This document shows positions 43,576 through 63,638 of a stretch of DNA of 64,000 bases, piece after piece; the first letter of the stretch is position 1, and the number at the start of each line of letters is the position of its first letter. Under the pieces are notes generated by a model. That model saw only the letters and a list, made by a program, of their open reading frames with translations. It was not told the origin of the DNA and did no database searches. The translations under genes and the position numbers were made by a program. Where the stretch lies: NCBI RefSeq assembly GCF_055900595.2, contig NZ_CM148325.1; one strand, written 5' to 3'.

Positions 43576-44634
43576 GTGCGTGCCGATAAGTCATTAAGCC
43601 CGTTTGAAATCCGGGTATACCGCCATTACCGCATTGTGCATGGTACTCGGGTCGCGCTGGCATTCCTGCTCACTTTTCTCATTATCCGCCTGTTTACTAT
43701 CCCGGAAAGCACCTGGCCGCTGGTCACCATGGTGGTGATTATGGGGCCAATCTCGTTCTGGGGGAACGTTGTCCCTCGCGCATTCGAACGTATTGGCGGT
43801 ACGGTGTTGGGGTCGATTTTAGGTCTTATCGCTCTGCAACTGGAGTTAATCTCGTTACCGCTGATGTTAGTCTGGTGCGCGGCGGCTATGTTTCTTTGCG
43901 GTTGGCTGGCGCTGGGCAAGAAACCGTATCAAGGTTTATTGATTGGGGTGACGCTGGCAATTGTTGTTGGTTCCCCGACAGGTGAAATTAATACGGCGTT
44001 ATGGCGAAGCGGCGATGTGATCCTCGGCTCTTTACTGGCAATGTTGTTTACCGGTATCTGGCCACAACGGGCGTTCATCCACTGGCGCATTCAACTGGCA
44101 AAAAGTCTGACCGAGTATAATCGGGTCTATCAATCTGCATTCTCACCGAACTTACTCGAACGCCCGCGTCTGGAAAGCCATCTACAAAAACTCCTGACCG
44201 ATGCCGTGAAAATGCGTGGGCTGATTGCGCCCGCCAGCAAAGAAACCCGTATTCCAAAATCGATATATGAAGGTATCCAGACCATTAATCGCAATCTGGT
44301 TTGTATGCTGGAGTTGCAAATCAATGCGTACTGGGCCACGCGCCCCAGCCATTTCGTGTTATTGAACGCGCAAAAACTTCGTGATACCCAGCATATGATG
44401 CAGCAAATACTGCTGAGCCTTGTTCATGCGCTGTACGAAGGTAATCCGCAGCCGGTTTTTGCCAATACGGAAAAATTGAACGATGCTGTGGAAGAGCTGC
44501 GTCAGTTGCTGAATAACCACCATGACCTGAAGGTTGTGGAAACACCAATCTATGGTTATGTGTGGCTGAACATGGAAACGGCACATCAGCTTGAGTTGCT
44601 ATCGAATCTGATTTGCCGGGCCTTGCGCAAATAA
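43576..44634 (+). CDS. yeeA: FUSC-family inner membrane protein
   Basis: 352-aa ORF in the conserved core position. Confidence 0.88.
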   Translation: MRADKSLSPFEIRVYRHYRIVHGTRVALAFLLTFLIIRLFTIPESTWPLVTMVVIMGPISFWGNVVPRAFERIGGTVLGSILGLIALQLELISLPLMLVWCAAAMFLCGWLALGKKPYQGLLIGVTLAIVVGSPTGEINTALWRSGDVILGSLLAMLFTGIWPQRAFIHWRIQLAKSLTEYNRVYQSAFSPNLLERPRLESHLQKLLTDAVKMRGLIAPASKETRIPKSIYEGIQTINRNLVCMLELQINAYWATRPSHFVLLNAQKLRDTQHMMQQILLSLVHALYEGNPQPVFANTEKLNDAVEELRQLLNNHHDLKVVETPIYGYVWLNMETAHQLELLSNLICRALRK

Positions 44635-44805: not shown

Positions 44806-45135
44806 ATGGAAACTACCAAGCCTTCATTCCAGGACGTACTGGAATTTGTTCGTCTGTTCCGTCGTAAGAACAAACTGCAACGTGAAATTCAGGACGTTGA
44901 GAAAAAGATCCGTGACAACCAGAAGCGCGTCCTGTTGCTGGACAACCTGAGCGATTACATCAAGCCAGGGATGAGCGTTGAAGCAATCCAGGGCATCATC
45001 GCCAGCATGAAAGGTGACTATGAAGATCGCGTTGACGATTACATCATCAAAAATGCCGAGCTCTCCAAAGAACGCCGCGATATCTCCAAAAAGCTGAAAG
45101 CTATGGGCGAAATGAAAAACGGCGAAGCGAAGTAA
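44806..45135 (+). CDS. yeeX: UPF0265 family protein YeeX
   Basis: ORF 44740..45135; start taken at [14 protein letters not shown] (109 aa). Confidence 0.88.
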
Positions 45136-45235: not shown

Positions 45236-45418
45236 TTAACAACAGCCTTCTTCTGTATGCAGCAAGGCAAAAAGTTCTGTAACTCCATTGTTATTAACTG
45301 CACTGGTTACTAACACGTTGTGCGCTCCAGCTTCCCGTAACCAACTTTTCACCAAAGATATTTGTTCCATGCTGGCTAAATCTGCTTTGGTTACTACTCC
45401 AATGACCGGGTGATTCAT
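45236..45418 (-). pseudogene. Putative EutP/PduV-like GTPase C-terminal fragment
   Basis: The C-terminal 60 aa of ORF 45236..45592 (MNHPVIGVVTKADLA...GVTELFALL) resemble a EutP/PduV C-terminus; the N-terminal part of that ORF is antisense to an IS remnant and is likely spurious. Confidence 0.35.
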
Positions 45419-45474
45419 GGCCCGGTAGGGCGTTTTTACCTCTAATTCCTGCTTCAGCGCTGAGATTCCTGCTT

Positions 45475-45648
45475 GTTGCCGGAAAAGCAGGCACCTGCCG
45501 TCTGAACGGTATCGATCCGGAAGCGTATCTGCGCCATATTCTGAGCATACTGCCGGAATGGCCCTCCAACCGTGTTGACGAACTCCTGCCATGGAACGTA
45601 GTTCTCACCAATAAATAAGCGTCAATACGGTGCTCCGTTGACGCTTAC
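45475..45648 (+). mobile_element. IS66-family element remnant (3-prime end: transposase C-terminal fragment plus terminal inverted repeat)
   Basis: Plus-strand translation ...CRLNGIDPEAYLRHILSILPEWPSNRVDELLPWNVVLTNK* parallels the C-terminus of the intact IS66 transposase at 56160..57731 (…[30 protein letters not shown]…); terminus ...accgtattgac...cgcttac matches the IS66 end at 56130. Confidence 0.6.
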
Positions 45649-46032
45649 TTTAATCCGTTTTCTGAGCTTAGATTTTTCTGTTCCTACCCAGACCGTGGAT
45701 TTGGAATTCATTTTTTGTCAGGTCAATGCTAATCGTTAAAACGGCCATAACGCACCTCCACTGGAAGGTTTATCAGTAATATCCTACCGTTGCTTCATGG
45801 TCGGGGCGTCCATTCCATTATTATCGGTTTTCCTTTCTGTTTATAAATGAAAACGCCAGCTGTATTCAGGCTGGCGTCAGGGGAAATGAAGCCTGTTGAG
45901 TGAGATTCACCGCTTCTGGTGCAGAAGCTGCAGATGGCGCAGGGTAAGGACATCTTCTCTTGCCTGCTTAATACAGGACAACAGTGCTGTTTCTGTGGTT
46001 AATGGCACTATACCCTGCATCACTGCATTGTC

Positions 46033-46227
46033 TTACAGCAACTGGTGAGGGCTGGCATAAGTTGCCGGTGTTTCGGTAGAGTCACGGTCATCCACCACGC
46101 GGAGTGAATAACCTTTTTCAGCGGCCTTATTAATCAGTTCAGTGATATTAACACCATCAATGTCAACGACAATGTGCCCCATATCCAGCGCCTGTACGTT
46201 AACGCTGTCGGCTTCCAGTGTCATCAT
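46033..46227 (-). CDS. yeeW: CP4-44-type island protein YeeW
   Basis: 64-aa ORF MMTLEADSVNVQALDMGH...; start overlaps the cbtA stop (ATGA). Confidence 0.75.
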   Translation of the reverse strand: MMTLEADSVNVQALDMGHIVVDIDGVNITELINKAAEKGYSLRVVDDRDSTETPATYASPHQLL

Positions 46228-46597
46228 TTCGCCTCCGGATACTTACCCAGGGTAATGTTATTTACCGTTCTGTAATTGTCGCGGGTCATCAGGCCGGTCG
46301 CCCTGCGAGCCCGGAGGATATCGATGCTGTTTATTAACTGAGAGCGGGTACAGGCGCTGAATCCCGGCTGGTCGGTAGCACCAGCGCGTATTTTTCCACG
46401 AGAAAGTTCACCGCATCACACAGTGAAATGCCTGCCTCAATATGCTGCTCAATCACACGTTCATCGGCAAAAGGTGTGTCATTCAGTGTGAGGCCATAGT
46501 GCTGGTCCAGCAGTCGGGACAGCAGTATCTGCCAGATTTCAACAGGAGACGGGCGAGAACTGGTCGCCTGCCCGGGTAATACAGGTAATGTTTTCAT
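46224..46597 (-). pseudogene. cbtA: CbtA (YeeV) type IV toxin, frameshifted
   Basis: N-terminal 73 aa in ORF 46334..46597 ([10 protein letters not shown]...VEKYALV); the C-terminal part (…LMTRDNYRTVNNITLGKYPEAK*) is readable in another frame; total span is 374 nt, not a multiple of 3; apparent 1-bp deletion near 46377. Confidence 0.7.
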
Positions 46598-46685
46598 ACT
46601 GAAGATTTTCCTGATATGCAGATATAAAAATGGAAAAGTGGCGTGGTGAAAACACCAGGCCGTAGCAGAAGGCTATTCTGGAGAG

Positions 46686-47054
46686 TTAATTTTTCATTTC
46701 GGGCGTCGGATAAACAGCCAGATAAACGTAACCACAACTGCTGAGGGTATCGGCTTTGCAGGTCAGCCCTTTTGCATACAGCGTGACGGTATGCTGATGG
46801 CGGGGATTCAGTTCACCGCTGGTGAGCATGAGTTCCAGTTGTTTCATCAGCAGCGGAAAGGCCTGGTCCAGGTGGTACGCATCTGCATCGCTGAACAGGC
46901 CTCTGATACCGGCGCGGTCGGCAAGGTAATGCAACCGGTTACCCTCCTGCACCAGACGTGCCCCGAAACAGGGCGTCACGGTGCAGGGCAGCCCCCACCA
47001 GGGGCGGTCGTGATTGTCGTCGGGAAGTGTTGTCCCGGGGAGTGTGTCTGACAC
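46686..47054 (-). CDS. cbeA: CbeA (YeeU) antitoxin of the CbtA/CbeA system
   Basis: 122-aa ORF MSDTLPGTTLPDDNHDRPWWGLPCTVTPCFGARLVQEG...; apparently intact. Confidence 0.88.
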   Translation of the reverse strand: MSDTLPGTTLPDDNHDRPWWGLPCTVTPCFGARLVQEGNRLHYLADRAGIRGLFSDADAYHLDQAFPLLMKQLELMLTSGELNPRHQHTVTLYAKGLTCKADTLSSCGYVYLAVYPTPEMKN

Positions 47055-47127: not shown

Positions 47128-47349
47128 TCAGTTCAGGGTGACGCTCATCAGCCGGACATACGGACCAAAACTGTCCTTACGGCGTTCAGCAAACACGGCC
47201 AGCACACCGGGAATATCCTGCACTTCACGACCGGTATACGCTTCAGCACTGCCGTGCCAGCGGTATTTACCGGTACAGAACGGAAAAAGACGGGATGTCG
47301 GATGTTGTTGGTGAATACGCATGGCTTCACCACGGGTGATAATTTTCAT
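47128..47349 (-). CDS. yeeT: DUF987-family island protein YeeT
   Basis: 73-aa ORF in conserved order upstream of cbeA. Confidence 0.8.
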   Translation of the reverse strand: MKIITRGEAMRIHQQHPTSRLFPFCTGKYRWHGSAEAYTGREVQDIPGVLAVFAERRKDSFGPYVRLMSVTLN

Positions 47350-47411: not shown

Positions 47412-47888
47412 TTAAAGCAGACCATGTTCGGCAAAGGAGAAAACCTGGTTGCCACCGACTATCAGATGGTCCGGCACCCGGATATCCACCAGGCCCAGTG
47501 CCTGTACCAGACGTTCCGTGATAAGGCGGTCTGCCTTACTGGGTGTGACTTCACCGGAGGGGTGATTGTGTGCCAGCACCACGGCAGCGGCATTGTGGTA
47601 CAGGGCGCGTTTAATCACTTCCCGGGGATGGACTTCCGTGCGGTTGATGGTGCCGGTAAAGAGGGTTTCACCGGCAATCAGTTGATTCTGGTTATTCAGA
47701 TACAGCACCCGGAATTCTTCACGCTCCAGTCCCGCCATGTTCAGAATCAGCCATTCCCGTGCTGCACGGGTGGAGGTGAAGGCCACGCCGGGTTCATGAA
47801 GATGGCGGTCCAGGGTTTTCAGGGCCCGTTGAATGAGGCTGCGCTCGCCGGGCGTCATCTCTCCGGGCAGAAAGGAAAGTTGTTGCAT
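47412..47888 (-). CDS. yeeS: RadC-like JAB-domain protein YeeS
   Basis: ORF 47412..47903; JAMM-like motif HNHPSG; start position uncertain. Confidence 0.82.
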   Translation of the reverse strand: MQQLSFLPGEMTPGERSLIQRALKTLDRHLHEPGVAFTSTRAAREWLILNMAGLEREEFRVLYLNNQNQLIAGETLFTGTINRTEVHPREVIKRALYHNAAAVVLAHNHPSGEVTPSKADRLITERLVQALGLVDIRVPDHLIVGGNQVFSFAEHGLL

Positions 47889-47903
47889 TGTGCTTCTCTC
47901 CAT

Positions 47904-48383
47904 TCAGTCGATGATGCGCATAATGGCGCTGCATTCCGGATGCTGCAGGGCGTAATCCCGCAACCGGTAATAATGGACCGTCATGGCATAATTCTCCGTA
48001 CGACAGGCATGATGACTGTACGTCATCAGACAGGCGGCAATACCGGCGGCTTCCGGGCTCATTTCTGCGCGGTTACCGTTCATGGCATTGAACAGTACCC
48101 ATGTTTCGTCATCATCGTCATCCGGTTCGGGTGCCATAAATGCCCCGCCGTTGTTCAGGGTGTACAGATTCCAGATACCACCGCAGTAGTCTTCGCACAG
48201 ACGGTCCATCCAGCCGAAGACACGGGGCTCCAGGGTCACCCACTGTGGAATGAGGCCAAAATGCTGCGGCCAGAAGCTGATGCGCTGTTCATCAGGGACG
48301 AGGCTGGCAACCAACTGAGGCGGATTATTCTCTGGTGTTGTAGCTGAATAAATTGTGGGGGTATTCTGAGAAACGGTTTTCAT
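47904..48383 (-). CDS. Antirestriction protein (ArdB/KlcA-like; YfjX/YafX family)
   Basis: 159-aa ORF with an acidic stretch (EPDDDDDETW), in the position typical for antirestriction genes of CP4-like islands. Confidence 0.75.
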   Translation of the reverse strand: MKTVSQNTPTIYSATTPENNPPQLVASLVPDEQRISFWPQHFGLIPQWVTLEPRVFGWMDRLCEDYCGGIWNLYTLNNGGAFMAPEPDDDDDETWVLFNAMNGNRAEMSPEAAGIAACLMTYSHHACRTENYAMTVHYYRLRDYALQHPECSAIMRIID

Positions 48384-48464
48384 GAGATAACTCTTTAAAT
48401 AACAAATAAATGTGTGTTTTTCAGGAACGAAAGCTGAATGATTCCCTCACTCAGGGAAACGGCA

Positions 48465-49286
48465 TCAGCGCAGGCTCTCCAGCATCGTTTCTGCCATCAC
48501 CCACAATGCGCGATTGAGCTTAATGTCGGTATCAATGCTGTGAATGGCCCGGGTATGGATACGTTTTCCTTTTGCACTGCGACCGGAAATCCCGCCTTTC
48601 AGCATATTCTCCTGGATGGTCTGATATGCGCTCCACAGGTCCTTACCGTAATCCTCCCGGCGTCGCGGCGTCAGAATGTCGGCGGTGGTGACGGGCTGAT
48701 GTTCGTCACCATAACGGTAAGTCAGTGCCGCCTGTGCCAGCGCCTGGCGTGCCGGTGGCGGCAGGACCAGAGACTGCATGGCATCACGCTTCTCCTCTAT
48801 CCGGTCAAACACGCCCACCACCTCGTAAGCCCCTTCGATAACTTTCTCCACTACATTTCCCCGGTGTGGAACACGCACTTCCCCCAGAGACTGGCCACAG
48901 ACGCACCCGTTCTGGCAGACGAACCTGAAGTAACCCGGCAGCATCTGGTAGCTGGAGGTACCGTCATGAGAGTTGAGCAGAATAATTTCAGGGACATGTT
49001 CTCCGTTTATCTCTCCGGCCCGCCGCAGACGCAGCATGTGTTTTGTGTATCCCCGGCGGCCCGGGTCGCGCACACGGGTCTGGCAGGCGAAGAACGGCTG
49101 AAAGCCTTCCCGCTGCAGATTTTCCAGGACGGTAATGGTGGGAATGTACGCATACCGTTCACTGCGGGAGGTGTGCCGGTCTTCCCCAAAAATACTGGGT
49201 ACATGGCGTATCAGTTCTTCATGTGTCAGCGGACGGTCACGGCGTATCTGGTTTGCAGCATAACCAAAACGACTTGCTAATCGCAT
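48465..49286 (-). CDS. DUF932-family protein (YafZ/YfjQ-like)
   Basis: 273-aa ORF typical of CP4-type islands. Confidence 0.7.
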   Translation of the reverse strand: MRLASRFGYAANQIRRDRPLTHEELIRHVPSIFGEDRHTSRSERYAYIPTITVLENLQREGFQPFFACQTRVRDPGRRGYTKHMLRLRRAGEINGEHVPEIILLNSHDGTSSYQMLPGYFRFVCQNGCVCGQSLGEVRVPHRGNVVEKVIEGAYEVVGVFDRIEEKRDAMQSLVLPPPARQALAQAALTYRYGDEHQPVTTADILTPRRREDYGKDLWSAYQTIQENMLKGGISGRSAKGKRIHTRAIHSIDTDIKLNRALWVMAETMLESLR

Positions 49287-49331
49287 ACTTTGCTCCTTAT
49301 CGGTGGTTAAGATTTACTGGTGCAATAAATG

Positions 49332-49368
49332 AAAAAAGCCGCGTCTCCCGGAGAAGACGCGGCCTGAC
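49332..49368 (-). terminator. Rho-independent terminator downstream of the minus-strand secreted-protein genes
   Basis: gccgcgtct...agacgcggc hairpin with a U-run on the minus strand. Confidence 0.55.
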
Positions 49369-49506
49369 GGGTGAAATGAATAAGGTTTATTGTCTGAGAG
49401 GCCTTTCACTGGCGAGCCACGCATTAAGCGGCTTTCCGGTAACAATGGCTGGGGCTGTATTTACCTTTGATATTAATAATGTGCAGAGAAACGCATGGTT
49501 TACTCC

Positions 49507-49917
49507 TTAGATTTTAAGTTTGTCCTGGGCTACAACGACAGGTTTTCCGGATGTGTCGATGACTCCTACCGTCGGTACGCCATTTTTGATTTCGAAGAAC
49601 GGTTTGTTGCTACCTGAGCACAGTTGATTGTCCCCGTATTCAATCATTTGTGCTTTCCCGGTTTTCAGGTTAACTACCGAGACAGTGTAGTCGTAGCACC
49701 AGGCACCACCACGTTCAAGCACGAAAACATAGCTGTTATCTTTATAGTTGAACTGATTCTTTGTCTGGCAATTCATACCGTCAATTTCGGTACAGGAAAA
49801 CGCTTCTGTAGTATTAACGTATTTGATGTTATTTGGCAGTTTTACTTGTTTCGCAGTAGCGAAGACAGAGAACAGAATAGTTACAGCAACGAGTAAAGTT
49901 TTGATAAAAGTTTTCAT
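49507..49917 (-). CDS. Small secreted Cys-containing protein, unknown function
   Basis: 136-aa ORF with a clear signal peptide (MKTFIKTLLVAVTILFSVFATA); low-GC gene. Confidence 0.6.
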   Translation of the reverse strand: MKTFIKTLLVAVTILFSVFATAKQVKLPNNIKYVNTTEAFSCTEIDGMNCQTKNQFNYKDNSYVFVLERGGAWCYDYTVSVVNLKTGKAQMIEYGDNQLCSGSNKPFFEIKNGVPTVGVIDTSGKPVVVAQDKLKI

Positions 49918-49932
49918 GATAGACTCCTTAAA

Positions 49933-50421
49933 TTAGTTAACCGCAGCTACGTAGTTTTTCACCAGATACGCGAATTCATGCACGCCAATTTCACCGAACC
50001 AAACCAGGTAGGCCGGGTCATCTAAACCAAAGTAACGGTAGCCAACAACTTCATGGGTTTTTGGGTTATAGAGTGTTACGATAAAGTCCCAGCCGCAGGT
50101 ATTGGCTTTGCAACCGTCGCCCTGGAACCAGACTGTACCGTTAATGTTTACTGGCGTGATACCTCCACCAGGGCCATCCATATAGCCGCCTTTACCGAAC
50201 ATGCCGCTCAGTCCGACCGGTTTTAATGCTTTGTCGATAGCGGCTTTGTAGGTAGCGTCACCTTCGTACAACTCGTACGTTGATGGACACGCTCCAGGTT
50301 GTTCAGCCCAGGCTTCCGGGTTACAACTAAGAGCTTGTTTTACGGTAGCCGCTTCTGCGTTAAAGTTAAAGCCCGTGAACAGAACCGCCAGAAATAACAT
50401 AAGGGTATGTAAACGTTTCAT
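49933..50421 (-). CDS. Secreted Cys-rich protein, unknown function (C-terminal part of ORF 49933..50724)
   Basis: Internal Met followed by a signal peptide (MKRLHTLMLFLAVLFTGFNFNAEA) with an SD-like ggaag upstream; the upstream in-frame 101 codons encode another signal-like segment. Confidence 0.5.
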   Translation of the reverse strand: MKRLHTLMLFLAVLFTGFNFNAEAATVKQALSCNPEAWAEQPGACPSTYELYEGDATYKAAIDKALKPVGLSGMFGKGGYMDGPGGGITPVNINGTVWFQGDGCKANTCGWDFIVTLYNPKTHEVVGYRYFGLDDPAYLVWFGEIGVHEFAYLVKNYVAAVN

Positions 50422-50751
50422 TGTAAATATTCTTCCGTTGTAAATGGCGCTGGAAAATTTCTCATCAGTGAAACCTTCCGGAAGTTTCCCCCCCTTGTAT
50501 GATGTATATCGCCAGTATTTTATTTCATCCCGGCTGTAATTTTTATATTCCCCGGCACGTGCAATAACGCTGACCAGAGATATAAGGCTCATTAATAACT
50601 TTACAGGTAATTTCATAATTAAATTTCCAGTGAGTGAATTGACAGGTGAGGGGTAAAACTTTCTCTCAGGTAATATATATCTGAAAATATTTTCAATAAC
50701 ACCAGACAGGAAAAACACCACCACAGGCGGTGGCGTTTCTTTGGGGCGTCT

Positions 50752-51822
50752 TTATTTAATCCGGGCCATCGCGTTTCTCAGTGCCAAATCTGCCTCTTCC
50801 GTTATATCCAGGCTTTTCTGCAATACCGCCTCTGACCGGGTCAGTGCCTGACGTGCTGCCAGCGGTTTCCGGATATGCTCCATCGCCAGCATCGTGTCTT
50901 CATAGCCCTGCTGACGCCAGGCGTCGGTATGTGCCGATGTAAAACTGAGCAGACCGCCGCTGTTGCCACCATCACCTGCATATTTCAGCCTTTTCCGGGG
51001 ACGGATCTCAAGGATTGTGGTGTCCGGAAAAGCCTGGCGATCCCATAAAGAACCGTCACTCAGATGCGTCACAATCACCATATTGCATCCGGCATCGACC
51101 AGAGGTGTCACAGGGGTATTTCCCTGCATATTTCGCCATCCTCCCATACCACCATCACCGAACATTGTCCCCTGAACCTCACGGGGACGGAACAGCAGGG
51201 GCAGCGCGGCTGACGCAAGCAGAGCCTCTTTCTGCTGTCCGCGGGGCAGGCTCTGGATATGCTGAAAAACGGCGTTTTTCGTGGTTCCGACACCCAGTTC
51301 AGCACGAATGCAGTCAATAATATCCTGCATGCCCCCTTCTGTGGGGTACAGCGACACATACAGCGGTAGCCCGTCTGCCAGAGCATCAGTATCAAGATAA
51401 TGATCCATCAGCGCTGTCAGGGGTTCATCTGACAACAACGGCTGAGCCATCAGATTGTCAAACCCGTTGATTGTCGATATATGGCGAAGAAGCGTCGTAA
51501 GCAGTGCTCCTGCACGTCCGGGGATCTGGCAGAGGTTCATTGCCTGGAACAATTTTTTCAGCAATGAAAAGTAAACCAATCTGTTTACCGACAGCACCTG
51601 ATTATTCCCCAGATGATCCCAGAGCGCCTCCAGGCGTACGGCAGCTTCTGACAGATCGGGAGAGGCCACGATAATGGCACCATTGAATGCGCCAATGCTG
51701 GCCCCTGAAACCATGCTGATCTGTGTACCACACTCTGCCAGTGCCTTAACCACTCCCGCCTGATAAGCGCCCACCGCCCCGCCACCGGACAGCACCAGCC
51801 CCGTTTTCATTTCTGTACTCAT
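50752..51822 (-). CDS. Patatin-like phospholipase
   Basis: 356-aa ORF with a Gly-rich oxyanion motif (SGGGAVGAYQAG), GxSxG nucleophile (GASIG) and DGG catalytic Asp motif (FGDGGMGG); start overlaps the upstream gene stop. Confidence 0.85.
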   Translation of the reverse strand: MSTEMKTGLVLSGGGAVGAYQAGVVKALAECGTQISMVSGASIGAFNGAIIVASPDLSEAAVRLEALWDHLGNNQVLSVNRLVYFSLLKKLFQAMNLCQIPGRAGALLTTLLRHISTINGFDNLMAQPLLSDEPLTALMDHYLDTDALADGLPLYVSLYPTEGGMQDIIDCIRAELGVGTTKNAVFQHIQSLPRGQQKEALLASAALPLLFRPREVQGTMFGDGGMGGWRNMQGNTPVTPLVDAGCNMVIVTHLSDGSLWDRQAFPDTTILEIRPRKRLKYAGDGGNSGGLLSFTSAHTDAWRQQGYEDTMLAMEHIRKPLAARQALTRSEAVLQKSLDITEEADLALRNAMARIK

Positions 51823-52724
51823 GCAGCCCCCTTCTGAAATATTTCATCGACCATACTTTCAGAGAGGCGTTCTGCAGAGCAGAGGCGAGGCATGCGAACC
51901 GGTAAGTGTTCTGCAGCCTGCGTGGTTGACCAGATCACCGGATGCTGCTCTTCACTGCACCAGTCTCCCAGCCAGTTAATCGCGTCATGCCACTCGTTAT
52001 CTGCCTGCTCCCGGCCCTGACCACCAAGCCAGTCCAGAGTGTTCAGACGCACGGTTGCACTACCGCCACTCTCCTGTGCCATCTGCGTTAATGCTTTATG
52101 TCTGAGAATATCCAGTAGCTGGTTAACCTGGCCTGTTTCGCTCTGACGTATCACATCACCAAACGCGCCCCAGCGAAGCTCTTCAAGTGCCACATAACAA
52201 CGTCCGGCAGGGGAAAATGACGCATATCGCCCGGCGCTCCACCATGAGAATATCTGCTCAAGATGTAACTGCGCCCGCTGAACCTGGTCAACACGGTGGA
52301 GTTTTTCTTCAAGATGATTCAGTTTATGGTGAACCTGATCGGCCAGGGTGAGTAACTGCTCCCGCGTATCTGCGGAATAATGCGCCAGCCTGGCTGTATC
52401 ACTGACCAGTGAACTGACCCTGTCGTTTACCCGGGTAATCGCGTAGTTTGTGGTGGCAAGTGACGTTGTCATCTCCGTCAGCCAGCGCAGGGACGCCTCA
52501 ACGCCCTGTGCAAGCGACGCATTGATGGCATTCTGCCGTGCAGCGCCTTCGCCGGTCAGCCCCTCTTTTAAACGCCGGAAGAACGTGCGCTCTCCGGCCG
52601 TGCGGATATGCTCCTGTGCAACATCGATTCCGTTTGCGAAATCAACCACAAATTTTTCAGGAAGACAGGTGAGTACCTGACATACCCGGTTATCAGCAAT
52701 TTGTTGAATAAATGGTGAAGTCAC
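51819..52724 (-). CDS. Hypothetical protein, predicted helical, no recognisable domain
   Basis: 301-aa ORF whose start and stop overlap the dynamin-like and patatin-like genes by 4 bp each. Confidence 0.7.
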   Translation of the reverse strand: MTSPFIQQIADNRVCQVLTCLPEKFVVDFANGIDVAQEHIRTAGERTFFRRLKEGLTGEGAARQNAINASLAQGVEASLRWLTEMTTSLATTNYAITRVNDRVSSLVSDTARLAHYSADTREQLLTLADQVHHKLNHLEEKLHRVDQVQRAQLHLEQIFSWWSAGRYASFSPAGRCYVALEELRWGAFGDVIRQSETGQVNQLLDILRHKALTQMAQESGGSATVRLNTLDWLGGQGREQADNEWHDAINWLGDWCSEEQHPVIWSTTQAAEHLPVRMPRLCSAERLSESMVDEIFQKGAA

Positions 52725-55117
52725 AGCATTGTCTCCAGCTCTTCCCTCAGCGCCTTACTGTCAGTAATGAGCTCAGGAACCCTTTCATTTAATGCCTGAA
52801 GTCGCCCGGTAAGTCGTTCCTGCGCCTGCTGATCGCGTTTATGATCTTCAGAGCTCTGAATCAGCGTGTTACGCAGTTGTTCAACTTTCTCCCTGAATGC
52901 GCAGAAAAAGGCATCGATTTCCTGGCGGACGGGCTGGTTAATATCCTGCTCAATGGATGCCTGCAGCTCCCCGAAATATGCCCGGGTCAGTGACATAACT
53001 TCCTCTCTGACCTTGTTGATATTGATCACGCTGCGACTCACATCCTCGTCATAGTTTTCCCAGCCCAGGTCACTGGTGCCAAACCATCGACAAACGGTTC
53101 CCCATACGCCACTCTGCCGACGGCGACGGGTGACGGTCTCCGTTCTTTCCTCCATAAGCGCACTCAGATTTATTTTTACCGCGAGCCGGGTCTGTAACTG
53201 GCTGACTGCCGGAAAACTGATTTTTACGGTAAAGCCCTCATCCTCCAGGCGGGCATTGATGCGACCGGCAATGTTTTCTGTGGCGTACAGGGCCGTGCCA
53301 CGAAAACCTGTTTCAATCCCGCTGACGATTTTCTCCAGCTCAGGCCGGAACTGTGCTTCAGCCTCACGGTGCAGGCTGGTCACGGTCGATTCGATTTGCG
53401 TCATCAGTTCAAGGGCTTCCCTGCGATCACTGAATTTTATTTCGGGGCTGTCCGGGGCAAAATCTCGTTTCCTGTAATCCTCCCGGCCCTGGTTGTTGAT
53501 ACCGGACCATTGAGAAATTTTCCCCCATAATCCGGACTGAGACCTTCGTTGTTCTGCGTCTTCTTCCTCCAGCATTTGCTGTTCTTTGCGTTTACCGCTT
53601 CTGAAATAGTCATTCAGCTCCTCTTCCAGTGAGGTGCAGACCCCCGTCAGTAATTCCCGGGTTTTAGTATCGATCTCCTCCATGGCCATTCTGACATCAG
53701 TGGTCATCTGCTCCTGACAGTCCGCGATTTCCCGGATATCCGCAAGCAGGCTGGTGATATGCGACTGCAGTGACTGAATGCTTTGCTGTAGCCCCTGATG
53801 GCGTAACAACAGGTATTCACTGATATTTTCTGCATTCTGCATCAGTTTTGCGGCGGCAGAGTCAACCGCCAGTGCCGCAGCTCTGGAATGTGAGCTCTGT
53901 ATGACTTCCGTTATCAGTTGATCGATAAGTGAGCCTTCCCACAGGTCTGTCGCCCCTTCAGTTGCCAGTTCACTGTCTTTACAGACGTATTCTTTTTTCA
54001 TGCAACCGAAGGCACCTCTGATAAAATCATCGACCCAGGCTTCATCAACAGGAAGGGTTCCGTTTTTCCGTAACTCATGAAGCGCACGGTTAGCCAGGTA
54101 TGCCTGGCGTGAGGATCCGGGATAAACGCGGGAGGCGGGCAGCACATTGCTGTTCAGCATTGCCGGAACTTTCTGGCGTACGGCATCTGCCCCATCGCCA
54201 TTGCGGTCTTTCTCATCAAATTTATTGACCAGTACAAACAGGCGGCCGGCTGATACGTCAGCAATGGCATTAAGCTCTTTACGGACGTCTTCATCCGCTT
54301 TTGAGTTCATCTGTGTGTAATCCATCACAGCCAGAACCGCAGAGGCTTTCTGCAGTTGATCCCGCATCATCACTTCCATCTGCGGTTGTCCGGCCTCATT
54401 AGGGCCGGGGGTATCCAGCAGTGTGAGTGTTCCCTGGCATGCATCCATCCCCACCAGATGGCTGAATTCCACGTCGATCACCGGCAGTTTCTGCACTTCT
54501 GCGTATTCATCAAAAGGAAATTCAGTCCCCATTGCCGCAGCAAGACGAACCAGATCGTTTAACGATGCCAGTCCGGTAAAGATTTCCTCCTCCCCGTGGT
54601 ATTCATTTTTGAGCCAGCCATCATCCGTCAGAATATCCAGCAGTTCGCGGGTATCCCCGGTTTGCTGCAGGGTCTGTGCGACCTGCTGTCCTGCCGGGGT
54701 GGCGAGTTTTTCCTGCAGTGTGATTAATAAATTGCGGACAGGCTGAATATGTTCCAGATGGAGAACCGGCTCAGTTTTTCCGGGAACGTGGCGGATGAGC
54801 GTCGGTACAGAGGTCATGGGGCGGTTACGGTTAGGCAGAATTTCCTGCCCCACAATGGCGTTGATGGTGGTTGATTTGCCTGCTTTCATCGTGCCGACAA
54901 CAGCCAGCACCATCTCCCTGCGGGCGGTTTTGATTTGTTCGCCCTCCAGCTCCTCAATTCTTTTCAGTGCTTTCTGTTTATCAAAAAGCAGTCTGTTTTC
55001 GTTCTTACTGTCAGATAACACATCTGGCTCCTCAACCATTTGCCGGAGCAGATTAATGTTCAGTTGCAAAAGTCGGTCGGCTTCATCACAAAGCAGGGCG
55101 ATGTTCTTTTCGTGCAT
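52721..55117 (-). CDS. Bacterial dynamin-like large GTPase
   Basis: 798-aa ORF with G1 P-loop GTMKAGKST (aa 75-83), G3 DTPG (aa 235-238), G4 NKFD (aa 298-301), and a long helical C-terminal half with two repeated RxQSG.WG...W motifs. Confidence 0.85.
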   Translation of the reverse strand: MHEKNIALLCDEADRLLQLNINLLRQMVEEPDVLSDSKNENRLLFDKQKALKRIEELEGEQIKTARREMVLAVVGTMKAGKSTTINAIVGQEILPNRNRPMTSVPTLIRHVPGKTEPVLHLEHIQPVRNLLITLQEKLATPAGQQVAQTLQQTGDTRELLDILTDDGWLKNEYHGEEEIFTGLASLNDLVRLAAAMGTEFPFDEYAEVQKLPVIDVEFSHLVGMDACQGTLTLLDTPGPNEAGQPQMEVMMRDQLQKASAVLAVMDYTQMNSKADEDVRKELNAIADVSAGRLFVLVNKFDEKDRNGDGADAVRQKVPAMLNSNVLPASRVYPGSSRQAYLANRALHELRKNGTLPVDEAWVDDFIRGAFGCMKKEYVCKDSELATEGATDLWEGSLIDQLITEVIQSSHSRAAALAVDSAAAKLMQNAENISEYLLLRHQGLQQSIQSLQSHITSLLADIREIADCQEQMTTDVRMAMEEIDTKTRELLTGVCTSLEEELNDYFRSGKRKEQQMLEEEDAEQRRSQSGLWGKISQWSGINNQGREDYRKRDFAPDSPEIKFSDRREALELMTQIESTVTSLHREAEAQFRPELEKIVSGIETGFRGTALYATENIAGRINARLEDEGFTVKISFPAVSQLQTRLAVKINLSALMEERTETVTRRRRQSGVWGTVCRWFGTSDLGWENYDEDVSRSVININKVREEVMSLTRAYFGELQASIEQDINQPVRQEIDAFFCAFREKVEQLRNTLIQSSEDHKRDQQAQERLTGRLQALNERVPELITDSKALREELETML

Positions 55118-55379
55118 TATTTAACCTTCCTAAGACGCATTTTCATGACAACCACGGAGGAGGTCATTTACTACAAACGATCGTTTATAACGATCGATAT
55201 GATAGTAACGATCGATGTATTCTATTAACTTGAGAAACACAACGCAAGGGGACAACCCGGGTATGGCTGCGTTTGCATAGTGTTTTCATGGAGTTAAAAA
55301 TCTGTAACAACAGCCTGGTACATCACCACCGGGTTCAGAAGAAAATCCAGTTCCATACCGCGCGGGCAACAGAGACCAC

Positions 55380-56129
55380 CTAGTCACGGACGGCGCGCAG
55401 AACCGTGCGTGCAACAGAGGCAATGCAGACGCTCTCCGCCGTGTCAAATATCCGGTCCACCGCACCGGTAAACTGTTCACGGGCCTGAGACCGGACAGAC
55501 TCCGTGCGCAGCTCGTCCTGCAGGCGGGTCATCAGGGGACTGGCGGCATGGTCGGGAAGTGCTGTCATGAGCGCACTGACCAGCGTATCCAGTTCCCAGC
55601 CGGTGCGGGCCGATACGGCAACAACCCGATGTACGGGCCGGAACAGACGGAATACCGCCTCCGTTTTTTCGCGAATGTTCTGTGCCTGTGCGGGAGAAGG
55701 CTGAATACCGGCCATATCCCATTCATGGCAGGGCTCCGTTTTATCGGCCTGCATCACCACAAACAGTACCCGCTGATGTCCCCGGTGCAGGATGTGTCGC
55801 CAGAAATACTCATCCACAGACAGGGCACGGTCATCGGCTTTAATCAGCCACAGTACCAGGTCCAGTTCGAGCAGAATGTCACGGTACAGGGCTTCATACT
55901 CTGCATCCCTGTCCCGGCTCTCGCCCACCCCGGGCAGGTCAGTGATAACCATGCTGTGACCATGGCCATTCAGACGGAAGCGCTGCACTTCCCGGGGGCC
56001 GGCGTGAACATCACTGACCGGGGTGACCTCCCCCTGAAACAGCGCATTACAGAGTGAGGATTTACCGGCCCCGCTTTTACCCATAATGCCAGGCACGGGT
56101 TCGTGACTGGTGAGTTTGCGCAGATGTTC
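55380..56129 (-). pseudogene. YeeP/YfjP/YkfA-type small GTPase, 3-prime portion, disrupted by IS66 insertion
   Basis: ORF 55380..56096 (P-loop GIMGKSGAGKSSL, DLPG); the reading frame continues upstream to the IS boundary; the 5-prime portion lies beyond the IS. Confidence 0.75.
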
Positions 56130-56159
56130 GTAAGCGACTCGTCAGAACCGTATTGATAT

Positions 56160-57731
56160 TTACTGAGAGCTCAGATCAACTTTCCAGGGCAACAGATCGC
56201 GTACCCGGTTTGCCGGCCAGTCCTGGATATGTTCAATGACGTAACGCAGCCACTTTTCTGGCTCCACATTGTTCAGACGGCATGTGCCGATCAGCGAGTA
56301 CAACACCGCCGCATGTTCACCACCGCTGTCGGAACCCGCGAACATCCAGTTTTTCCGGCCTACGGCCACTCCCCGTAAGGCGTTCTCTGCGATGTTGTTG
56401 TCGATTTCCACCCAGCCATTACTGCAGTACACGTTCAGTGCATCCCACTGTTTCAGCAGGTATGCGAACGCTTTTGCCGTATCTGAGTGACGCGACAGTG
56501 TTTTCATCTGTTGCTGTATCCAGTCATACAGTGACTGCATCAGTGGCGCGGCTCTGGCTTTTCTTGCCGCCAGACGCTGTTCTGCTGAACAGCCCCGGAC
56601 CTCTGCCTCGATGGCATACAGTTCACCGATACGCTGCAGGGCTTCCGTGGTGATGTAGGTGGGCGCTCTTGCATGCACATCGTGGATTTTTCTCCGGGCA
56701 TGAGCCATACACGCGGCTTCCGTTATTCTGCCGGATTCGTATAACGCCCGGTAACCACCGTAAGCATCGGCCTGAAGCACACCGCTGTAACCGGCCAGGT
56801 GATTTTGTGGATGGATACCTTTCCGGTCCGGACTGTACGCGAACCAGACCGCCGGGGGCATCTGTGAACCGGCGTTACGGTCATCACGGACGTAGACCCA
56901 CAGCCGGGCTGTCCGGGTTTTACCGCTGCCCGGCTCCTGGACCGGGACGGGGATATCATCAGCATGGACTTTACCGGGCATCAGCACATACTGGCGCAGG
57001 ACGTCATACAGCGGCTCCAGCAGTTCAGCAACAGCACCTGTCCAGCGCCCCAGTGTGGCACGGCTCAGCTCCACTCCCTGACGACGGTATATTTCTGACT
57101 GGCGGTATAACGGCAGATGGTCTGCATATTTCCCGGTGACAACATGGGCCAGAAGCCCCGCTCCGGCATAACTGCGTGCAATGGGTTTTGAAGGTACTGG
57201 TGCCTGCACGATATGGTCGCACCGGCAACAGGCCTGTTTCGGACGTTGTGTTTCGATAACCTTAAAGGCGCTGCTGATAAGCTCCAGTTGCTCTGACACA
57301 TCACATCCCAGAGAACTGAGTTCACCACCACAGGCAGGACAGCATTCCTCTTCCGGCCGGATAACCCGGGTTTCACGGGGAAGTGAGGCCGGTAACGGTT
57401 TACGGGCTGAAGACTGGCGCAGGGCGGATGGCAGTACCGGGTCATATTGCTCACCCAGCGTTTCCGCCATTTCTTCCTGAAGTGCGCTGATTCGCTCCTG
57501 TGCTTCCTGTATCTGCCGTTCGGTTTTTGCACGAAGTTTTTCTGAGCTTTTACCGAACTGCATACGTTGCAGTTTCGCAACCAGCGCCTTCAGCCGGTTG
57601 ATTTCGGAAGCATAAGCCGCCACCCGCTGTGAGAGCAGGCGGTTGTATTCAGCCATCTGGCGGATGGTGTCCTGTTGCGTCTGCAACAGTGCCCGCAGGC
57701 GGGCGTTCTCATGAGCAAGTGAGGTGTCCAT
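56160..57731 (-). CDS. IS66-family transposase (orfC)
   Basis: 523-aa ORF with N-terminal coiled coil, zinc-finger-like CxxC pair and the typical C-terminus. Confidence 0.88.
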
Positions 57732-57750
57732 ATCCTCACTTTACAACGGG

Positions 57751-58098
57751 TTATATGCGGATTCCAGCGCGTTCCGTTCGTTTCGGGTGCTTCCAGTTGA
57801 TACCTTCAAGAAGCATGGATAACTGAGCCGGAGTAAGGTGCACCTTGCCGTCACGGGTGACTGGCCAGACGAAGCGGCCCCGCTCCAGGCGTTTGGTGAA
57901 GAGGCACAGTCCGTCACTGTCAGCCCACAACACTTTTATCTGGTCACCCCGGCGTCCGCGGAAGATGAACAGGTGTCCGGAGAACGGGTCATCCTTCAGG
58001 ACGTTCTGAACTTTTGATGCCAGGCCGTTAAAGCCATTTCGCATATCGGTGATACCTGCAACCAGCCAGATACGCGAACCTGCAGGGAGAGATATCAT
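57751..58098 (-). CDS. IS66-family accessory protein TnpB (orfB)
   Basis: 115-aa ORF directly upstream of orfC. Confidence 0.85.
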   Translation of the reverse strand: MISLPAGSRIWLVAGITDMRNGFNGLASKVQNVLKDDPFSGHLFIFRGRRGDQIKVLWADSDGLCLFTKRLERGRFVWPVTRDGKVHLTPAQLSMLLEGINWKHPKRTERAGIRI

Positions 58099-58775
58099 CA
58101 GTGGCTGCTCCCTTTTATTTCGCGGATAAGTGTCTGTAATAACGCCGGCGTCAGTTTACCTTTAAGCCTGAGAGTTCCGGCCGGCAGAACCAGCTCACAA
58201 CACAGACTGTCGGACGGTGTATTTATCCGCTCTGGTTCCTGTGCGGGGGCCGGGATTTTATTATCCGGCTCCGGCGTTAACGTCACGGGAAGCAGTGCCG
58301 GCATATTTTTTCCGGAAGGCAGCAGGCCACCTTTCCGGTATTGATGGCGCCAGTTGAAGAGCAGGTTATCGTTGATTCCGTTTTCCCGGGCGATCTGCGC
58401 CACACAGGCTCCGGGCTGCAGTGACTGCTCCACTAAGGCGATTTTAAACTCATAAGGGAAGTTGGGCCGCCGGGGACGTTTTTTTACCACGGGGGCTTCG
58501 GATATAACGGTGCTTTCAGGACGTACGACTGGTACCGTGGAAAATTGTCCGTAAAGGCAGGCATCAAGTTCCTGCTCCGACATGCCTGCGGGCAAAGGCC
58601 ACGAAAGGCCAGCTCTCCGAAAGCGCACGAACATACTACAAACTGTTGATTTTGGTACACCCAGGCGACGCCCGGCCACAACCCGGGGTAAATGTTCTTC
58701 AAAGTGAAGACGTAAAGCTTCAGTGATCCAGGTCCGGTGTTTCATACGATAGTGTCCATTAAAAATGATGGACAT
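58098..58775 (-). CDS. IS66-family orfA (HTH protein), possibly with an N-terminal extension
   Basis: 225-aa ORF; the C-terminal two thirds resemble IS66 orfA; true start may be internal. Confidence 0.7.
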   Translation of the reverse strand: MSIIFNGHYRMKHRTWITEALRLHFEEHLPRVVAGRRLGVPKSTVCSMFVRFRRAGLSWPLPAGMSEQELDACLYGQFSTVPVVRPESTVISEAPVVKKRPRRPNFPYEFKIALVEQSLQPGACVAQIARENGINDNLLFNWRHQYRKGGLLPSGKNMPALLPVTLTPEPDNKIPAPAQEPERINTPSDSLCCELVLPAGTLRLKGKLTPALLQTLIREIKGSSH

Positions 58776-58826
58776 TATTTTTGTAGAGCCGGAGGAAACA
58801 GACCAGACGGTTTAAATGAGCCGGTT

Positions 58827-58914
58827 ACAGATGTTCCAGGATGTGACGGGAAAGTGAGTAAGGCAGGGAGGAGAGCGGTTTTTCAATTGCCTCAATGGCA
58901 TCAGACGGATTCAT
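58827..58914 (-). pseudogene. YeeP/YfjP-type small GTPase, 5-prime portion (N-terminal about 29 codons)
   Basis: Minus-strand reading MNPSDAIEAIEKPLSSLPYSLSRHILEHL runs into the IS66 target duplication and continues in frame after the IS (RKLTSHEPVPGIMGKSGAGKS...). Confidence 0.5.
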
Positions 58915-58997
58915 ACATGTATTCCCGGTGAAAAAAGACAAAACCCCGCGCACCGGAAAGGTGGCGGGGGATTCACGGAAATAATATCTGTCTGAAA

Positions 58998-61680: not shown

Positions 61681-63638
<1,958 letters not shown>

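Follow-up and report, generated by a model that had tools for sequence, protein, structure and literature searches.

In Escherichia coli K-12, the cryptic prophage CP4-44 encodes the toxin CbtA (YeeV) and the antitoxin CbeA (YeeU), whose genes lie in the order yeeS-yeeT-cbeA-cbtA-yeeW beside tmaR (yeeX) and yeeA. The hallmarks of the CbtA toxin are inhibited growth and a lemon-like cell shape upon induction, along with binding to FtsZ and MreB. K-12 CbeA is a type IV antitoxin: it counteracts the toxin at the targets, by bundling FtsZ and MreB, rather than by binding the toxin (reviewed in PMC3827094). In the toxin, an R15C substitution abolishes the interaction with MreB and an F65S substitution abolishes the interaction with FtsZ; toxicity persists in each single mutant and is lost only when both substitutions are combined (Heller et al., PMC5624674). 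Two further K-12 pairs, YkfI/YafW of CP4-6 and YpjF/YfjZ of CP4-57, belong to the same Pfam families (PF06755 and PF06154) as the module analyzed here but occupy other loci, and their toxins are intact in K-12. F65 is conserved in both YkfI and YpjF (PMC5624674), and the antitoxins cross-neutralize, with CbeA, YafW, and YfjZ each neutralizing all three K-12 toxins (PMC5371832). Moreover, a 2026 paper reported that DUF5983 (yeeW-type) proteins and an adjacent AntiFam-flagged segment are consistently found beside cbtA/cbeA and suggested a programmed frameshift at the DUF5983/AntiFam-flagged segment (PMC13294457).

We examined the corresponding locus in a stretch of 64,000 nt, referred to below as the window. 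The region is a CP4-44-type cbeA-cbtA type IV toxin-antitoxin module of E. coli, located on the minus strand at the toxin-antitoxin end of a CP4-44-type island in an otherwise typical E. coli chromosomal segment. The toxin gene is assigned to the cbtA locus by nucleotide orthology and by its position, flanked by cbeA and yeeW and next to tmaR and yeeA, and the region differs from its K-12 counterpart at 5 positions in 1,051 nt. The features are listed in Table 1.

Table 1. Positions, in the window, of the cbeA-cbtA module, its parts, and its neighbors
Feature	Position	Strand	Remarks
yeeA (FUSC family)	43576-44634		Intact
tmaR (yeeX)	44806-45135		
yeeW	46033-46227	minus	64 aa; DUF5983 N-terminal domain; intact (open reading frame list and Pfam)
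cbtA (yeeV) pseudogene	46224-46597	minus	374 nt; orthologue of K-12 CP4-44 cbtA
Out-of-frame remnant of cbtA	46224-46376	minus	CbtA residues 75-124 and original TGA; 100% identical to K-12 in protein and DNA
Residual open frame of cbtA	46334-46597	minus	87 aa (73 native and 14 out-of-frame residues); TAA at 46336-46334
6-bp inverted repeat GCTGGT/ACCAGC	46367-46385		Deletion site in loop; stem-loop from terminator scan
cbeA-cbtA spacer	46598-46685	minus	88 nt; AGGAAAA 5' of cbtA ATG; same as K-12
cbeA (yeeU) antitoxin gene	46686-47054	minus	122 aa; intact open reading frame
yeeT (DUF987)	47128-47349	minus	Upstream neighbor in conserved module
yeeS (RadC-like JAB domain)	47412-47903	minus	Upstream neighbor in conserved module

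The surroundings of the module showed several further features. The interval between tmaR and yeeW (45236-46000) contains an EutP/PduV-like remnant, a C-terminal fragment of an IS66-type transposase, and a C-terminal fragment of a DUF957 gene, all three of which recur in K-12 and in every inspected genome that carries the allele described below. The gene yeeA, intact in the window, is frameshifted by annotation in one such carrier, E2863 (L001 7964-9023). Upstream of yeeS, the island (47904-56100) departs from the K-12 CP4-44 layout: flu and yeeR are missing, and in their stead, starting beyond yeeS with antirestriction and DUF932 genes, are two hypothetical genes, a patatin-like phospholipase gene, RdcB-family and dynamin-family genes, and a GTPase gene, all identified by homology to the annotation of the closest genome. 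Farther along, an ISCro1 (IS66-family) copy at about 56130-58915 is displaced by about 80 bp from its place in the closest genome, with an 88-bp piece found on the opposite side of the element. As a consequence of this shift, about 26 codons have apparently been cut from the 5' end of a yeeP-like GTPase gene that is complete in the closest genome. An IS100-type istA/istB pair (IS21 family) also lies within the island, at 61771-63572, and is present in the closest genome as well.

The toxin gene itself does not form a single reading frame. It begins with the ATG at 46597, ends with a TGA that shares the ATGA at 46227-46224 with the yeeW start codon, and measures 374 nt, or 3 × 124 + 2. Both six-frame translation and tblastn with K-12 CbtA placed residues 1 to 73 in frame -1 (46597-46379) and residues 75 to 124 with the stop codon (TDQPGF...GKYPEAK) in frame -3 (46376-46224). 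Nucleotide alignment with a K-12-lineage genome revealed exactly one gap in cbtA (column 694): codon 74, encoding Arg, lacks a G, such that GTG CGT ACC of K-12 reads GTG C-T ACC here, between 46378 and 46377. The absence of this one G accounts for the two parts of the protein being encoded in different frames. The only other difference from K-12 cbtA is one single-nucleotide polymorphism (SNP), A12T; the two genes are thus 99.5% identical, and the 152 nt that follow the deletion are the same in both. The site lies outside any homopolymer run, in the loop of the 6-bp inverted repeat; this loop has 7 nt in the window and 8 nt in K-12. Since the frame break is a deterministic difference from the reference allele, chance is irrelevant to it. 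The first-pass annotation of this DNA had called the gene cbtA, proposed a single-base deletion near 46377 within a 374-nt region whose N- and C-terminal parts are in separate frames, and described the cognate cbeA as intact. Orthology with K-12 cbtA, the sole alignment gap, the six-frame translation, and the 122-aa cbeA frame with its Pfam match, respectively, bear out these four points. Altogether, the locus is best explained by an inherited 1-bp deletion, present as a common allele, that would have inactivated or strongly attenuated the toxin while cbeA was kept, a reading that we consider highly probable as a whole.

Translation from the normal start would yield an 87-aa product without residues 74 to 124, including the family-invariant SIDILRAR/GL/Y/G block. 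In agreement with this, the Pfam profile CbtA_toxin (PF06755) matched the 87-aa product over positions 1 to 73 of 112, compared with 1 to 112 for K-12 CbtA; hence, no single frame of the window gene encodes the full-length domain. We then compared the product with the CbtA family, which comprised 2,346 clusters in a search of a large protein collection. All full-length members, from E. coli, E. albertii, Klebsiella, Citrobacter, Enterobacter, Serratia, and Raoultella, are 124 to 126 aa long. An alignment of 28 full-length relatives contained 43 invariant columns, 17 of which fall within residues 74 to 124 (R74, D76, G79, S86, L88, S91-R98, G102, L103, Y109, and G118), and in the window this conserved C-terminal block is encoded only out of frame. 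The uniform length of the relatives and their strongly conserved C terminus indicate that the 87-aa product is no natural short variant; a naturally shorter but intact form of the family, which the first-pass annotation had named as one finding that would overturn its claim, is thereby ruled out. With 17 of the 43 invariant columns lost, sequence conservation makes it very probable that the native toxin is disabled, its dual action on FtsZ and MreB having been abolished or, at the least, greatly weakened.

The alternative that retains most weight is that the 87-aa product is functional in its own right, folding as an N-terminal helical unit that binds FtsZ and/or MreB and acts as an attenuated or single-target toxin, with cbeA consequently under selection. 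The binding determinants for MreB (R15) and FtsZ (F65) both lie in the 73 retained residues, and either interaction alone suffices for toxicity on overproduction (PMC5624674). An AlphaFold2 (AF2) model of intact CbtA, calculated from a 28-sequence alignment, gave pLDDT values of 73 to 88 for a three-helix unit comprising residues 12 to 72 and below 50 for residues 77 to 124, and the frameshift falls at the end of the confident unit. In the 2011 work of Tan and colleagues, YeeV lacking its C-terminal 52 residues is reported to have still caused cell elongation and filamentation. Together, the two retained residues, the predicted structural boundary, and this reported truncation keep the idea of an attenuated toxin alive. 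Furthermore, no second disruption was found in six carrier alleles. On the other hand, the lost C-terminal third belongs to the best-conserved parts of the family, an argument for its being required, and the out-of-frame tail of 14 residues may destabilize the product. The AF2 model is weak overall (mean pLDDT, 63; pTM, 0.49), and the carriers are too alike for purifying selection on the 87-aa frame to become visible. No solved CbtA structure was found by sequence search, and a Foldseek search of the moderately confident AF2 model against the PDB returned nothing better than an E value of 2.5. Thus, while an active N-terminal unit might exist, we regard this explanation as unlikely. Still more doubtful is its extension, in which the 87-aa allele would be a maintained, milder modulator of the cytoskeleton that reached high frequency in B1/E-type lineages through selection and kept cbeA useful. 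In a genome-wide association study of resistance to microcin J25 (MccJ25), a "specific sequence of cbtA" was confined to resistant E. coli (PMC10926693). The sequence appears in a figure of that report, and its supplement gives only a cluster name; the sequence could conceivably be the 87-aa allele.

We next consider how common the deletion is. The 61-nt sequence spanning the deletion junction was matched exactly in 1,503 of 5,426 complete E. coli genomes (about 28%), including O157:H7, O111:H8, O103:H2, and enterotoxigenic E. coli (ETEC) strains. In all but three of the junction-matching records the query coverage was at least 80%, which means that the matches span the junction. By comparison, the intact 62-nt junction was found exactly in 1,935 records of the same collection. 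In a sample of 60 entries spaced evenly over the ranking, about 18, in line with the share from the junction search, carried the 374-nt allele with 0 to 2 SNPs, among them O111:H8, O103:H2 12009, O157:H7, ETEC, O141:H4, and O2:K2:H1 strains, whereas the K-12, J53, and MG1655 entries had 375 nt. Many complete E. coli genomes match the allele at 100% identity over all 374 nt, and the genome closest to the window has the same deletion. Moreover, the five carrier genomes that we inspected all have the allele at the same chromosomal site, where RefSeq/PGAP annotates "cbtA, frameshifted" and both cbeA and yeeW as intact. The annotated genes of E2863, O103:H2 12009, O157:H7 PV15-279, and WCHEC040047 share the deletion and the locus with the window at 99.5 to 100% nucleotide identity and differ from it by 0 to 2 SNPs (e.g., at the A12T site), without any substantive difference. 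The exact 87-aa product occurs on at least 1,000 public contigs, and its public names include "toxin of the YeeV-YeeU toxin-antitoxin system." Our literature searches retrieved no published description of a cbtA frameshift or pseudogene. These data identify the broken cbtA as a widespread pseudogene allele that is already recorded in databases thousands of times; with its presence in about one-fourth of complete E. coli genomes and its existing pseudogene annotation, it is an ordinary allele.

The carriers also offer clues to how the allele arose. Any two of six carrier sequences, from the window and the five inspected genomes, are separated by no more than 2 SNPs within cbtA, and all six have the deletion in common. 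On the basis of these six sequences, a single ancestral deletion event is most likely, and the inverted repeat around the site may have favored it. Nonetheless, the module has not been inherited as one block. Carriers vary at the A12T SNP, and in the O2:K2:H1 strain C 237-04 (L006 744-1112) the same deletion is combined with a different allele of the 5' half of cbeA (the first ~200 nt), with about 30 differences. The hybrid cbeA places recombination breakpoints inside the module and, together with the A12T polymorphism, indicates that recombination shuffled the module after the deletion arose. We therefore propose a one-time deletion in the loop of the short inverted repeat, after which the allele would have spread both vertically and by recombination at yeeS-yeeT-cbeA-cbtA-yeeW-tmaR.

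In contrast to the toxin gene, the antitoxin gene is intact. CbeA matched the Pfam profile CbeA_antitoxin (PF06154) over positions 1 to 100 of 101 (E = 4e-53), an essentially full-length domain, and differs from K-12 CbeA by one amino acid; the exact protein occurs on at least 1,000 contigs. The downstream gene may likewise be unaffected. A GGAGG Shine-Dalgarno sequence precedes the yeeW ATG, and with a ribosome-binding site of its own yeeW does not depend on coupling to cbtA, so that the displacement of the cbtA stop codon by 106 nt upstream need not silence it. Compared with the arrangement described in PMC13294457, yeeW has only the DUF5983 N-terminal domain here and is followed by the DUF957 fragment. 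That cbeA is still intact could reflect either too little time and mutation to break it or a continuing use. The latter is possible because CbeA-family antitoxins cross-neutralize paralogous CbtA-family toxins encoded elsewhere in a genome, and by analogy with the K-12 pairs it is plausible that cbeA persists in this way. In the 64-kb window, tblastn detected no CbtA paralogue elsewhere.

A continuing use of cbeA also underlies the notion of adaptive domestication, raised in the first-pass annotation, in which positive selection would have favored loss of the toxin and selection would have retained the antitoxin, for example against paralogous toxins or for its bundling of the cytoskeleton. 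The share of the allele among complete genomes and its occurrence in distant serotypes, an intact cbeA in every inspected carrier, and the published cross-neutralization of paralogues (PMC5371832) are consistent with this notion. However, neutral inheritance in large clades, together with the oversampling of Shiga toxin-producing E. coli (STEC) and ETEC, would lead to a high frequency just as readily, and the SNPs are too few for a dN/dS analysis. More generally, the 87-aa variants and the six carrier alleles contain too few substitutions to judge constraint on either cbeA or the residual frame. Selected domestication overlaps with an inherited, common loss-of-function allele and differs from it solely in invoking selection, and on the available sequences we consider that added element improbable.

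The frame break could in principle be bypassed during translation, with programmed -1 ribosomal frameshifting on the deleted allele restoring a toxin of nearly full length. The frame of the C-terminal part opens 13 codons before the deletion, and a GAA AAA T run, on which the lysine tRNA could slip by -1, lies 15 nt upstream of it. Yet no canonical X XXY YYZ heptamer is present in frame, and the upstream sequence is the same in the intact allele, which implies that nothing there has evolved for recoding. Rfam searches of the module detected neither a frameshift element nor any other RNA family, and the promoter and terminator scans yielded only the small inverted repeat at the deletion. Recoding is thus a very improbable explanation. 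Finally, a sequencing or assembly error in a genome that in truth has an intact 375-nt cbtA, was an alternative raised by the first-pass annotation, and single-base indels are the commonest type of assembly error; it nevertheless has a negligible probability and is refuted by the identical junction in 1,503 independently assembled genomes from many laboratories and platforms, by the fully identical allele in many genomes at a nonhomopolymeric site, and by the deletion in the genome closest to the window.

For annotation, these results mean that the CP4-44-type cbtA in the window is a pseudogene and that cbeA is an antitoxin gene whose cognate toxin gene is broken; beyond correct annotation, the finding is of little importance. 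The natural allele nevertheless provides a ready-made C-terminal truncation for probing the role of residues 74 to 124. Moreover, since the broken toxin gene is carried by about 28% of complete E. coli genomes, those of major STEC and ETEC lineages among them, conclusions drawn from K-12 CbtA/CbeA should not be transferred to such strains without testing.
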